Shown piece by piece: positions 45,069 to 49,183 of a stretch of DNA of 64,000 nucleotides. The stretch is from NCBI RefSeq assembly GCF_011745625.1, contig NW_027191454.1:62001-126000 (forward strand), written 5' to 3'. The stretch comes from Cladosporium halotolerans. Taxonomy: Eukaryota. A program made the position numbers and the translations under genes. The stretch's first letter is position 1; each line of letters starts with the position of its first letter. The notes beneath the pieces were generated by a model. That model had not been told where the DNA came from, ran no database searches, and saw only the letters and a list, made by a program, of their open reading frames with translations.

Positions 45069-48000
45069 TTACAAAGGCTTGCCGCCAATGAAGTCACTCC
45101 ACCTCCTGACCTCGTTGGGGATGCCGTCAGGCTTAGGCAGCTTCTCGCTCATACACTGAGCGGAGAGGACGGCAGTCTTGGGCTCCATGAAGAGCGGCAC
45201 ACCGAAGTCGACGGCGTTGCGGCGCATAACGTAGTCCTCGTCGACCATGCTGCTGGCGCGACGCTTGGCCAGGTTGAAAGCGCCACGGATGTCGTACTTC
45301 TCGAAGACCTCACGCAGGGCGCGCTTGTCCTGCTTGGGGAACTCGATGACCTCGACGTTGACGGAGCTGTCCTTGCTGGACTGCTCGAGGTGCTCCTTGA
45401 TCTCGCTGTTGGCGGCGTAGAGCTTGTAGCCGAGAGGGTTCAGGTAGTCGACAATCTTGGCAAGGTCGCCAGTAGCGGTGTCACCGCCGAAGAGAAGACC
45501 CTCACCAGGCTGGGGAAGACGGAAGTTCATGGTGCTCTGCATGCCAGCCCAGTAGGCCTCGACGAGGTCCTTGCCGAAGCAAGCCATTTCACCGGTAGAA
45601 GACATCTCGACACCGAGGTAGGGGTCGGCACCAGCGAGACGAGTCCAGGCGAACTGAGGGACCTTGACGGCGAGATAGTCACGGTCGACCTTCATCAGGT
45701 CAACCGGCTCAGGGACGTTGGTATCGGTGATGGCGCGGGTTGCGACGTCGATGAAGTTGGTGCCCAGAACCTTGGAGGAGAAGGGGAAAGAGCGAGAAGC
45801 ACGGAGGTTGCATTCGATGACCTTGAGAAGGCTCTCACCGCCCTCAGGGTTGTCGGCGTTGATGATCTGCATGTTGAAGGGACCGGTGATGTTCCAGGCC
45901 TTAGCGACCTTCTCAGCAATCTCCTTGACACGGTTGACGGTAGCGGCGGGCAGGTTGGCGGGCGGCAGCACAAGGGAGGCATCGCCGGAGTGAACACCAG
46001 CGTTCTCAATGTGCTCACTGACGGCGTGGACAAGCAGCTTGCCGTGAGAAGCAACAGCGTCAACGTCGATTTCACGAGCACCCTCAATGTATTGAGTGAT
46101 AACCACAGGGTGGTCAGGCGAGACGTTGGAGGCGGCCAAAAGCTTGTCCTTGAGCTCCGCCTCAGACCAGATAACGGTCATGGCGGCACCGGACAGGACA
46201 TAGGACGGGCGAACAAGGACGGGGTAGCCAACGCTCTCAGCAAACTTCTTAGCATCCTCGTAAGAAGTAAGCTCCTTCCAGGCGGGCTGGTCAACACCGA
46301 TAGAGTCCAGAATCGAAGAGAACTTGTGCCTGTCCTCAGCCTTGTCGATATCTTGAGGGTCAGTACCGAGAACCTTCGCCTTGCCAGTCTCCTGGAGCTT
46401 AAGAGCGATGTTCTGAGGCAGCTGGCCGCCGACAGAAACGACAACACCAGAGCTGGTCTCCAGCTCGTAGATGTCCATGACACGCTCGTAGCTGAGCTCT
46501 TCGAAGTAGAGGCGATCAGGGAAGTCATGGTCAGTTGAGGTGGTCTCTGGGTTGTAGCTAATTTGGCTGTTAGCATGGTTCTGGATGTATAGAGGTGGTA
46601 GAAATGGATGAGGTGCGAAAGGGGGGTTCTCGGCGGGCCGGGGGCGGTTTCTGAGCTCAAAGCCGACGATACCGCCACAAAACGCGATTTTTTCGAGCGG
46701 GATTGACCAGCCACAAGGGCAGGACATCTCACTGACCGATCGACGTGTTCTGTGACGGGTACCGAAGGTATGAGCTCAGGAAGCGAGAGCCTTCAGACTT
46801 CCCAGCGGCGGCGCGGCGTCGTCTCAGTGACGCACATGCACGCAATCGAACGACGACCGATGGCAGCACGTCCAATTGCAGCACTATATGTGTAAAGAGA
46901 TCAATAATCGCGCGCAGACATCGCAGTGGCCGAAAGGTGGTCTCTCGAACGCATGCCGCTGGTAGTACGTCTGGCTCGGGCATAACGTGGGTGAAGTCTG
47001 AGCCGGGCTGCGCCGAAGAATCCCCGTGCGCAGAACACACGCATTCGCGCGGCTGCTGATGGTAGGACGTCGAGATGCAAAACAACAGAAATAGACTTAC
47101 TTCTGTAATGGATTATTAGCAGATGTTCAAATGAAGATGCAAAAAAGTGAGCGACGGAAGAACTTACAATGACAACGGTCTTCTTGCCAAGCTCCTTCAA
47201 GCTGAGCGTAGCGTTGACAGCGCACCAATCGAACTCGACAGAAGAGCCAATGCGGTAGACACCAGATCCAAGAACGATGATACCGTGATCGTTGAACTCA
47301 ATATCGTGGCTGGAAGCGTTATAGGTCGTGTACAGGTAGTTGGTGTCGGCGGGGAACTCGGCGGCGAGGGTGTCGATCTTCTTGACCCAAGGGCGGATGC
47401 CAAAGTTCTTGCGGCGGGCGCGGACCTCATCTTCGGTGCTGTTGACGGCGTTGGCGATCTGCCTGTCGGAGAAACCGAGCTTCTTGGACTTGAGCATGAG
47501 CTCCTTCTTGACGCCGTAGAGCGAGCCGATGTTCTGGAGTTCGTGGGTGCAGTCGACGATGTTTTGGATCTTGTAGAGGAACCACTTGTCGATCTTGCTC
47601 AAGTCGTGGACCTTGTCGACGGAGTAACCTTCGTGAAGCATGGCCTGGCCAACAGCGAGCCAGCGGCGGTCGGTGGGGTTCCTGAGCACGTCGTCGATGT
47701 CGTCAAAGTGGTCTCCCTGGAGACCGGCGAACTTGGGGTCAACCATGCGAATAGCCTTCTGGAAAGATTCCTCGAAAGTACGACCGATAGCCATAACCTC
47801 ACCGATGGACTTCATAGCGGAACCGATGTGGCGGTCAACGTTCTGGAACTTGCTCAGATCCCAACGCGGCATCTTGGTGACGATGTAATCAAGAGAGGGT
47901 TCGAAGTTGGCGGTAGTCGTGCGGGTGACAGCGTTGGGAAGCTCAGGAAGAGTGTGTCCCAGACCGATCTTTGCAGCGGTATAAGCCAGAGGGTAGCCGG

Positions 48001-49183
48001 TAGCCTTGGAAGCGAGAGCGGAAGAACGAGAGAGACGAGCGTTGACCTCAATGACACGGTAGTCAAGACCATCCGGAGCCAGAGCGTATTGAACGTTGCA
48101 TTCTCCGACAACACCAAGGTGACGAATAATCTTGATAGCGGCAGTCCGGAGCATGTGGTATTCCTCATCGCTGAAGGTCTGAGAAGGCGAAACGACGATA
48201 CTGTCACCAGTGTGAACGCCGAGAGGGTCGAAGTTTTCCATGTTGCAGACAGTGATACAGTTATCAGCGGCGTCGCGGACGACCTCATATTCGGCCTCCT
48301 TCCAGCCCTTGAGAGACTTTTCGACGAGAATTTGCGGGGACAGGGTCAGAGAACGGGCAGACAGGTTGCGAAGCTCCTCGGGGTTCTCAGCAAAACCACT
48401 GCCGAGACCACCGAGAGCGTAAGCAGCGCGGACGATAATCGGGTAACCAACGGAGTCGGCGGCGGCGAGCGCCTCGTCGACTGTGTTGACAGCGATACTC
48501 TCGGCGATCGGAATGTCGATCTCCTTCAGAGCCTGGGCGAACAAGTCACGGTCCTCACTGACCTCGAGAGTCCTGATGCTCGTACCAAGAACCTTGACGC
48601 CGTAGCGATCGAAGATGCCCATCTTGTTCATTTGCACACCCAAGTTGAGGGCAGTCTGGCCACCGAAGGAGAGGAAAATGCCATCGGGGCGCTCCTTCTC
48701 GATCACGTAGGTGACGTATTCGGGGGTGACAGGGAGGTAGTAGACTTCGTCGGCGAGAACGTGTGCGGTTTGAATGGTTGCGATGTTGGGGTTGATGAGG
48801 ACAGACTTGACGCCGGCCTCCTTGAGGGCCTTCAGCGCCTGGGAGCCGGAGTAATCGAACTCGCCGGCCTGTCCAATAGAGAGACCACCAGAGCCAATGA
48901 CGAGGACCTTCTTGACATCAACGAGGTCCTGCGCACCAGAAATGGCACCACTCTCGAGGTATGCTTTCGCATTGGGAGCGGTCTCTGTCTGGCTGGCGCA
49001 GCTCCTGGCCGACCTGGTAAAGGCCCTAATGTTCTTGGGAGCAGCCTTGACCTGCTTCTGCTGCTTAACGCATCGTGGGGCCTGAGAGACGAAGGTACGG
49101 CGGGCAATGCGAGGAGCAGCTTGGCGGGCTTGGTGGAACAACTCCTGCTGCAGCTGGCGAACCAGCTTGCCGCTAAGAGCCAT
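45069..49183 (-). CDS. CPA2: Arginine-specific carbamoyl-phosphate synthetase large subunit (CPA2/arg-3), mitochondrial; exons 49183-47168, 47102-47101 (2-nt micro-exon), 46557-45069; 1168 aa
   Basis: [87 protein letters not shown]; mitochondrial presequence; no GATase/ATCase domains, so not Ura2; the micro-exon restores KTVVINYNPET. Confidence 0.95.
46558..47100 (-). other. Unusually long (543 nt) structured spliceosomal intron in CPA2 with four GAYGTNCTRCC repeats
   Basis: GTAAGT donor at 47100, GCTAAC branch site and TAG acceptor at 46558; long complementary segments and four motif copies (see findings). Confidence 0.85.

Follow-up and report, generated by a model that had tools for sequence, protein, structure and literature searches.

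Evidence for an obligatory two-nucleotide exon in a CPA2-type carbamoyl-phosphate synthase gene of Cladosporium halotolerans

Exons shorter than three nucleotides (nt) are rare but already known. The Arabidopsis APC11 gene contains a single-nucleotide exon, according to PMC4674806, and exons of 2-5 base pairs (bp) in Arabidopsis, Drosophila and human are cited in PMC12940212. The same 2026 report describes a 1-nt exon in the CYP621A P450 genes of Fusarium, present in about 20 orthologues, and calls it the first fungal case. In the stwintrons of Pezizomycotina, as PMC5587772 presents them, an internal intron interrupts a splice signal of an external intron and nothing is left between the two; the mechanism of intron shift proposed there covers neighbouring positions only, and a shift by 2 nt is excluded. 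The zero-nucleotide ratchet points of Drosophila leave no nucleotide either and serve very long introns (bioRxiv 10.1101/006163). Here we analyze a 64,000-nt stretch of the Cladosporium halotolerans genome (contig NW_027191454.1, hereafter the window, to whose positions all coordinates refer). On its minus strand, the two bases AA at 47102-47101 are very likely an obligatory 2-nt exon in a three-exon gene of CPA2 type, and would be a further case of this kind.

Joined by coordinates, the coding sequence is spread over three exons, with lengths of 2016, 2 and 1489 nt. The spliced product of exon 1, AA and exon 3 has 3507 nt and encodes 1168 amino acids (aa), with the sole stop at the end. Judged by its sequence, the gene is that of the large subunit of an arginine-specific carbamoyl-phosphate synthase (CPS) of the CPA2 or arg-3 type, as an earlier note on this DNA had proposed. 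The product matched the full length of the CPS large-subunit model TIGR01369, with exon 1 covering positions 4-594 and exon 3 covering positions 596-1051, so that the two exon translations leave exactly one model position uncovered between them. The same gap appeared in NF003671, where exon 1 matched positions 6-591 (791 bits for this exon alone, against a cut-off of 599) and exon 3 matched positions 593-1048. The arginine specificity is taken from the names of relatives, the best named of which were labelled 'arginine-specific large chain' in the homologue search.

We compared the interval 46300-47500 with assembled contigs, rather than raw reads, of four sequencing runs from four studies (X1, X5, X6 and X8). 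Contigs in three of the four (X1, X6 and X8) join 47168 to 46559 and skip 608 nt; since the outer exons lie 610 nt apart, two letters are retained in the mRNA. The spliced contigs are a 62-nt record of depth 228 in X1, a 3134-nt record in X6 whose own coordinates run unbroken across the joint (1579 to 1580), and a 689-nt record in X8, a metatranscriptome. The two retained letters were aligned on 46559-46558, where the genome reads a and g, with one mismatch in each exon-3-side piece that has no entry in the table of differences. In X1 this mismatch must fall at 46558 or 46559 because the exon contig of that run is identical to the window over 46528-46557, and it is not a strain polymorphism because the unspliced X1 contig keeps the genomic letter at these positions. 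The first retained letter is A, since the three letters ATT fit both sides of the joint. A mismatch at the second retained letter means that it is A, C or T, and not G. The exon contigs of X1 break exactly at 46557 and 47168, and the depths of its spliced (228) and unspliced (63) contigs together approximate the exon depth (288). Mapping the junction to RNA, a check that the earlier note had suggested, thus places two retained letters, the first of them A, between 47168 and 46557. The X1 strain differs from the window by 11 substitutions and a 3-nt insertion (AGA behind 46777) in the introns (region 46528-47197) and by one or two differences per roughly 300 nt in the exons; the AA and the splice signals are untouched.

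The residue that the AA restores is the invariant asparagine of the motif I-N-x-N-P-E-T, and the two bases are needed both for the reading frame and for this residue. Aligned with the 1168-aa protein of Cladosporium fusiforme (P0121), the spliced product showed 95.4% identity and no gap columns. We looked at the junction in the best 120 homologues listed and in 80 metagenome loci (P and L numbers below, respectively). The pattern [IV]N.NPET.STD was uninterrupted in 91 of the 120 homologues and intact as far as NPET in 3 more, while a further 15 had the asparagine and then read into an intron. One homologue, P0003, reads into an intron after AA and one of the window's own type, P0001, after the isoleucine; the junction was aberrant in 8, and the anchor was absent from 1. 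The motif with its asparagine was intact in 48 of the 80 loci, and human CPS1 aligned here as vvvNcnpetvstd. Unspliced read-through open reading frames (ORFs) of the window type from other contigs (P0001, P0141, P0143 and P0147) keep the residues ..YR-SK.., which correspond to acag AA gtaag, and the architecture is therefore conserved across strains.

Inspection of the minus-strand sequence bore out the coordinates, lengths and motifs that the earlier note had assigned to the exons, the introns and the AA (Table 1). The borders of the micro-exon read acag/AA/gtaagt (slashes mark splice junctions), with a canonical acceptor directly 5' and a canonical donor directly 3', and each flanking intron has a donor, a branch site and an acceptor of its own, all of U2 type. 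The branch adenosine lies 13 nt before the acceptor in intron 1 and 12 nt before it in intron 2. Intron 2 also contains a decoy AG at 46568-46567, only 2-3 nt past its branch adenosine, a distance too short for use as an acceptor. In silico joining reproduced the non-productive outcome of every partial reaction listed in the note. Removal of intron 1 alone gave VVIK and then a stop; removal of intron 2 alone gave a frameshift ending at a stop; skipping of the AA gave a frameshift with a premature stop; and use of the AACAG acceptor gave VVIPN and a stop. With both introns removed, the frame stayed open to the normal stop.

The note had also claimed that, among the junctions tested, only inclusion of the AA works. 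This held for the conserved one-residue spacing but not where frame is the sole requirement: with a minimum length of 40 nt, 67 single GT..AG introns (from 38 donors and 33 acceptors) gave a stop-free join in the correct downstream frame, and none of them restored the spacing. All 67 are ruled out by the 608-nt skip in the RNA and by the one-residue spacing of the profile. Among two-intron solutions the AA was the best, with 41 of 45 matches to the peptide of a relative. The 610-nt interval contains just six AG/NN/GY sites, namely AA, CA, CC, AC, CG and AT; those that begin with A are AA, AC and AT, and only AA combines a GTAAGT donor with an asparagine codon. Counting both strands, the window contains a single AGNNGTAAGT, at the AA site (1.01 expected per 128 kb, and roughly 0.005 in the 610-nt interval). 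The full module GTAAGT-N30-60-CTAAY-N6-20-AG-NN-GTRAGT was likewise found once in the window and in none of 100 shuffles. Given the single AGNNGTAAGT and the absence of the module from the shuffles, a chance origin of this arrangement of splice signals is unlikely.

Table 1. Features of the CPA2-type gene and of the public gene model in the window.
Feature	Positions	Strand	Borders and signals	Description
Exon 1, coding part	47168..49183	minus	ATG at 49183; 3' end AAG ACC GTT GTC ATT (47168), then gtaagt	672 codons; N-terminal extension, first ATP-grasp half, oligomerisation domain, start of second CPS large-subunit half
Intron 1	47103..47167	minus	donor gtaagt 47167-47162; branch motif gctaat 47120-47115; acceptor acag 47106-47103	65 nt, GT-AG, phase 0 between Ile and Asn; coding position 69
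Micro-exon AA	47101..47102	minus		first two bases of Asn codon AAC, with C at 46557
Intron 2	46558..47100	minus	donor gtaagt 47100-47095; branch motif gctaac 46574-46569; acceptor tag 46560-46558; 3' end catgctaacagccaaattag (46558), aattag acceptor	543 nt, GT-AG, phase 2; coding position 71
Exon 3, coding part	45069..46557	minus	starts C TAC AAC CCA GAG at 46557; stop at 45069	C of Asn codon and 495 codons; second ATP-grasp half and allosteric/MGS-like domain
13-nt exon of public model	46737..46749	minus	flanks cacag/ and /gtcagt	AACACGTCGATCG; inside intron 2

Several observations weigh against this reading. The two retained letters are deduced from the alignment and not read directly, and by the contig data AC (46970-46969) and AT (46727-46726), each first A and second not G, fit as well as AA does. 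The records are assembled contigs, and their RNA label is recorded for X8 only and guessed for X1 and X6. In run X5 we found no joint, and its pieces (46380-46629 and 46675-47003) are all unspliced. About 22% of the X1 depth (63/288) comes from fully unspliced sequence, which could be DNA, pre-mRNA or real retention. Finally, two protein searches found no protein or cDNA of the same species with the asparagine at the junction: with a 201-aa query across the junction, searched among near lengths, the best match had 94% identity and no same-species fragment appeared, and in the other search the only 100% match was the unspliced read-through ORF.

That ORF led, through its 90% cluster, to the public model of the gene, P0138 (WHR41_01016, 'hypothetical protein' [Cladosporium halotolerans], 1194 aa). 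The first 672 and last 495 residues of P0138 are identical to the translations of exons 1 and 3 of the window. We reproduced the model exactly by extending exon 1 to 47101, which retains intron 1, and adding a 13-nt exon inside intron 2 (Table 1); 27 residues then stand in place of the asparagine. Because the contigs join 47168 directly to the exon-3 side, we judge that the 13-nt stretch lies outside the main mRNA. The public C. halotolerans protein model is wrong by 26 residues, within an invariant motif.

Four other explanations have to be set against the 2-nt AA exon. That the retained letters come from the AC or the AT site is very improbable, even though both satisfy what the contigs require of the two letters. 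AC would encode threonine behind a gtacta donor and AT isoleucine behind a gtcctg donor, compared with gtaagt for AA, and it is on these grounds that we take the AA as the exon rather than another pair beginning with A. Neither the 10-12 bases before the AC and AT acceptors nor a reading of the sequence revealed a CTRAY branch motif for either site, and AGNNGTAAGT occurs in the window at the AA site only. Either choice would also replace the asparagine shared by all 91+3+15 informative homologues of the 120 and by human CPS1. The public annotation is scarcely credible as an account of the main transcript. Its 1194 residues follow exactly from GT-AG borders, and intron 1 is open in frame; yet contigs of three studies contradict it, its insertion splits the invariant INxNPET where the family profile allows exactly one residue, and congeners have proteins of 1168-1169 aa that lack the insertion. 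A single 587-nt intron from 47167 to 46581, with the acceptor ..atccag/AAC at 46580, would be in frame and stop-free with GT-AG borders and would dispense with the micro-exon at the cost of 7 inserted residues. Its probability is close to nil: the contigs skip 608 and not 587 nt, the sole CTAAC branch motif lies downstream of that acceptor, and the insertion breaks the conserved spacing.

The fourth explanation concerns function. The earlier note had described the two abutting introns as a natural splicing on/off switch. On this reading, arginine supply or stress would alter the removal of one of them and lead to premature stops and decay of the message. In its favor, all four incomplete outcomes do end in premature stops, and part of the X1 depth is fully unspliced. 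However, that fraction may be DNA, partial splicing is non-productive for almost any coding intron, and close relatives produce this enzyme from genes that have a single intron or none at the site, so that the arrangement is not needed for the function of the gene. We also found no partly spliced form among the contigs of the four runs, a weak point since contigs drop rare forms and cannot show absence. A regulated switch is thus unsupported and seems unlikely to us. We favor constitutive inclusion of the AA exon.

How could two bases be recognized as an exon? Short introns of fungi are mostly recognized across the intron (intron definition). Both introns here could be defined independently, each by its own full set of U2-type signals (GTAAGT, CTAAY, YAG), and because recognition would run across the introns, an exon lying between two such self-defined introns would need no minimum length and no exon-definition contacts. 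With both introns removed, ATT, AA and C would be joined. The second ATP-grasp half begins with the I-N-x-N-P-E-T strand, whose asparagine would thereby be restored. A distance of 16 nt separates the branch adenosine of intron 1 (47116) from the first donor base of intron 2. The footprints of the U2 and U1 particles are known, and since this gap appears too tight for simultaneous full assembly, consecutive removal of the two introns, which the note had considered mandatory, is likely. Two spliceosomes would then act one after the other, and either order would give the same product. The stable predicted fold of intron 2 may help to bring its ends together.

The same spot has misled gene prediction in other species, as well as in C. 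halotolerans. Among annotated Dothideomycetes, LTPPM is inserted in P0006, the junction reads MINYSTD in P0011 and MINTYSTD in P0012, P0013, P0023 and P0028, and the models P0039, P0056 and P0092 continue into the intron, with a truncated or garbled protein as the outcome. Together with the public model, which is matched exactly only with a retained intron 1 and a 13-nt exon, and with the 8 aberrant junctions among 120 homologues, this supports the note's expectation that the site would be a trap for gene predictors. Three metagenome loci deserve separate mention. L016 (2884-3310), L022 (825-1330) and L023 (2884-3390) have an intron at position 72 (counted as defined below) with GTAAGT and GCTAAC but no AG before the TAC of YNPET; their 3' borders read …TTATGG/TAC, …TTCACG/TAC and …CCCACG/TAC, respectively. 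Use of the first AG past the branch site would delete YNPE, which is the state of the annotated P0012, P0013, P0023 and P0028. Either these introns use a non-canonical acceptor or something more complex is involved; for L003, L016, L022 and L023, the intron solver returned no combination of GT/GC-AG borders that scored 40 or more.

Comparing intron positions in CPA2 orthologues, another check that the note had suggested, bears on the origin of the arrangement. We numbered positions in coding nucleotides from an EFDW anchor, over the 45 codons that follow it (the region 47236-46500 in the window); 77 of the 80 metagenome loci contain this anchor. An intron at position 72, directly after the asparagine codon, was present in 21 of the 77 loci, and one at position 71 (AA/gt) in 5 (L002, L046, L054, L066 and L067). 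Two loci had an intron further downstream (82 and 93), one at 60, and 48 had none. No anchored locus had an intron at position 69. This position was seen only in the window-type ORFs P0001, P0141, P0143 and P0147 and in P0142, whose read-through tail (VMI-VSFITG…SLR-ITTPRL…) fits an intron of about 71 nt after the isoleucine, followed by AAT TAC AAC CC. Read from its protein rather than from DNA, P0142 would have the intron at 69 only. Conversely, P0144 (VSIK and a stop), P0132 (VMIK and a stop) and P0003 (VVIKLV…) appear to have the intron at 71 only, as does L002, where the DNA reads ATT AAGTAAGT. The intron is at 72 in L001 and L003 and at 81 in P0125 and its kin, and there is none here in P0002, P0123 (a 1169-aa ORF on a 116-kb contig) and L004.

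P0142 is also the closest relative of the window type. In the 600 residues that precede the junction, its identity to the window is 99.5%, and no other sequence exceeds 97.2%. In a maximum-likelihood tree of 18 rows, from which L002 and L004 were excluded for their length (<600 residues), the window type and P0142 formed a clade with support 80/86 inside a clade of 15 rows with support 100/100, whose other branches were unresolved. Because introns at 71 or 72 are widespread, the downstream intron is probably old, and the 65-nt intron would have been gained 2 nt upstream of it in a recent Cladosporium lineage. The micro-exon may then be the intermediate of a 2-nt intron shift, with a gain at 69 followed by loss of the old intron in the lineage of P0142, while the outgroups have the intron at 71 only. 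We put this forward tentatively, as somewhat less probable than its negation: it draws on one state read from a protein, a weakly resolved tree and a single gene. If it is correct, the mRNA would have remained unchanged at each stage of the shift, the route would allow intron sliding over distances that the stwintron model cannot cover, and this 30-nt stretch of CPA2 would offer a natural series for the study of intron gain and loss.

In Dothideomycetes, and in fungi beyond them, the 45 codons after the anchor form a hot spot for intron turnover (L001-L080, P0001-P0147). Introns occur at positions 60 (L051), 69, 71, 72, 81 (P0125 type), 82 (L013), 87 (P0007, P0009 and P0043), 93 (L032) and 97 (L001), and their positions often differ between proteins that are more than 96% identical. 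In Cladosporium-like relatives the old intron is at 72 (ATTAAC/GTGAGT … GTAG/TAC) or at 71 (ATTAA/GTAAGT … TAG/C or AG/T). This difference, between L001 and L003 on one side and L002 and the window on the other, is a 1-nt discordance of the kind for which the stwintron model was proposed. Relatives have other short exons here: in L001 (2956-3210), introns at 72 and 97 flank a 25-nt exon (TACAAC…CCACCG), and the read-through of P0035 suggests an exon of 15 nt, encoding YNPET, with an intron on either side. For the second intron of L003 we found no solution with GT/GC-AG borders.

At 65 nt, intron 1 has the usual size of short introns in fungi. Intron 2 is unusually long for a fungus and has a G+C-rich middle. 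Its predicted fold has an energy of -197 kcal/mol and is more stable than that of shuffled sequences (z = -4.3 against 100 shuffles). Introner-like elements are longer than regular introns and have a stable predicted fold, as PMC3609843 describes them, and intron 2 has both properties. Neither the 64-kb window nor the set of 80 related loci yielded a second copy of it. The two introns share TTTTGCATCT near their GTAAGT donors at similar offsets (47141-47132 and 47082-47073, minus strand); its score was reached in 12 of 1000 shuffles with the first 90 nt of intron 2 and in 29 of 500 with the whole intron. This is suggestive at most of a duplication by which intron 1 would derive from the 5' part of intron 2, and we do not claim such an origin.

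The AA exon adds an RNA-supported 2-nt exon of a fungal housekeeping gene to the very short list of exons below 3 nt. In the literature outside subscription journals we came across neither a fungal exon of 2 nt nor a micro-exon in this gene, and the only other fungal case found was the 1-nt exon of Fusarium CYP621A (PMC12940212). The corrected public model and the garbled orthologues of Dothideomycetes are relevant to annotation pipelines and to users of the sequences. Sister lineages that appear to have the upstream intron only, the downstream intron only or no intron make the locus a concrete case of intron movement without a change in the message.

In comparison with the known systems, the closest parallel is Fusarium CYP621A. 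In that case (PMC12940212) as in the present one, a conserved motif contains an ultra-short exon flanked by two GT-AG introns, and the exon reconciles intron phases, was missed by pipelines and has public RNA support. Unlike the 1-nt exon of CYP621A (AG/G/GT), the exon here has 2 nt (AG/AA/GT) and belongs to a core enzyme of the arginine pathway, and its occurrence is limited to one small clade of Cladosporium, with sister lineages that appear to have one of the two introns. With APC11 and the exons of 2-5 bp it shares a size far below that thought necessary for exon recognition; those exons are constitutive (PMC4674806, PMC12940212) and unlike the present one belong to plant and animal genes. 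Ratchet points of Drosophila (bioRxiv 10.1101/006163) similarly place an acceptor directly before a GTAAGT donor and undergo a second splicing step at the same spot, but here two coding nucleotides are kept, which sets the site apart from a zero-nucleotide point, and the upstream intron has only 65 nt. Finally, like stwintrons (PMC5587772), the locus combines adjacent U2 introns, two reactions and shifts of intron position among orthologues with the mRNA unchanged. It differs from them in that both introns are complete beforehand and 2 nt are retained between them, and so it is not a stwintron.

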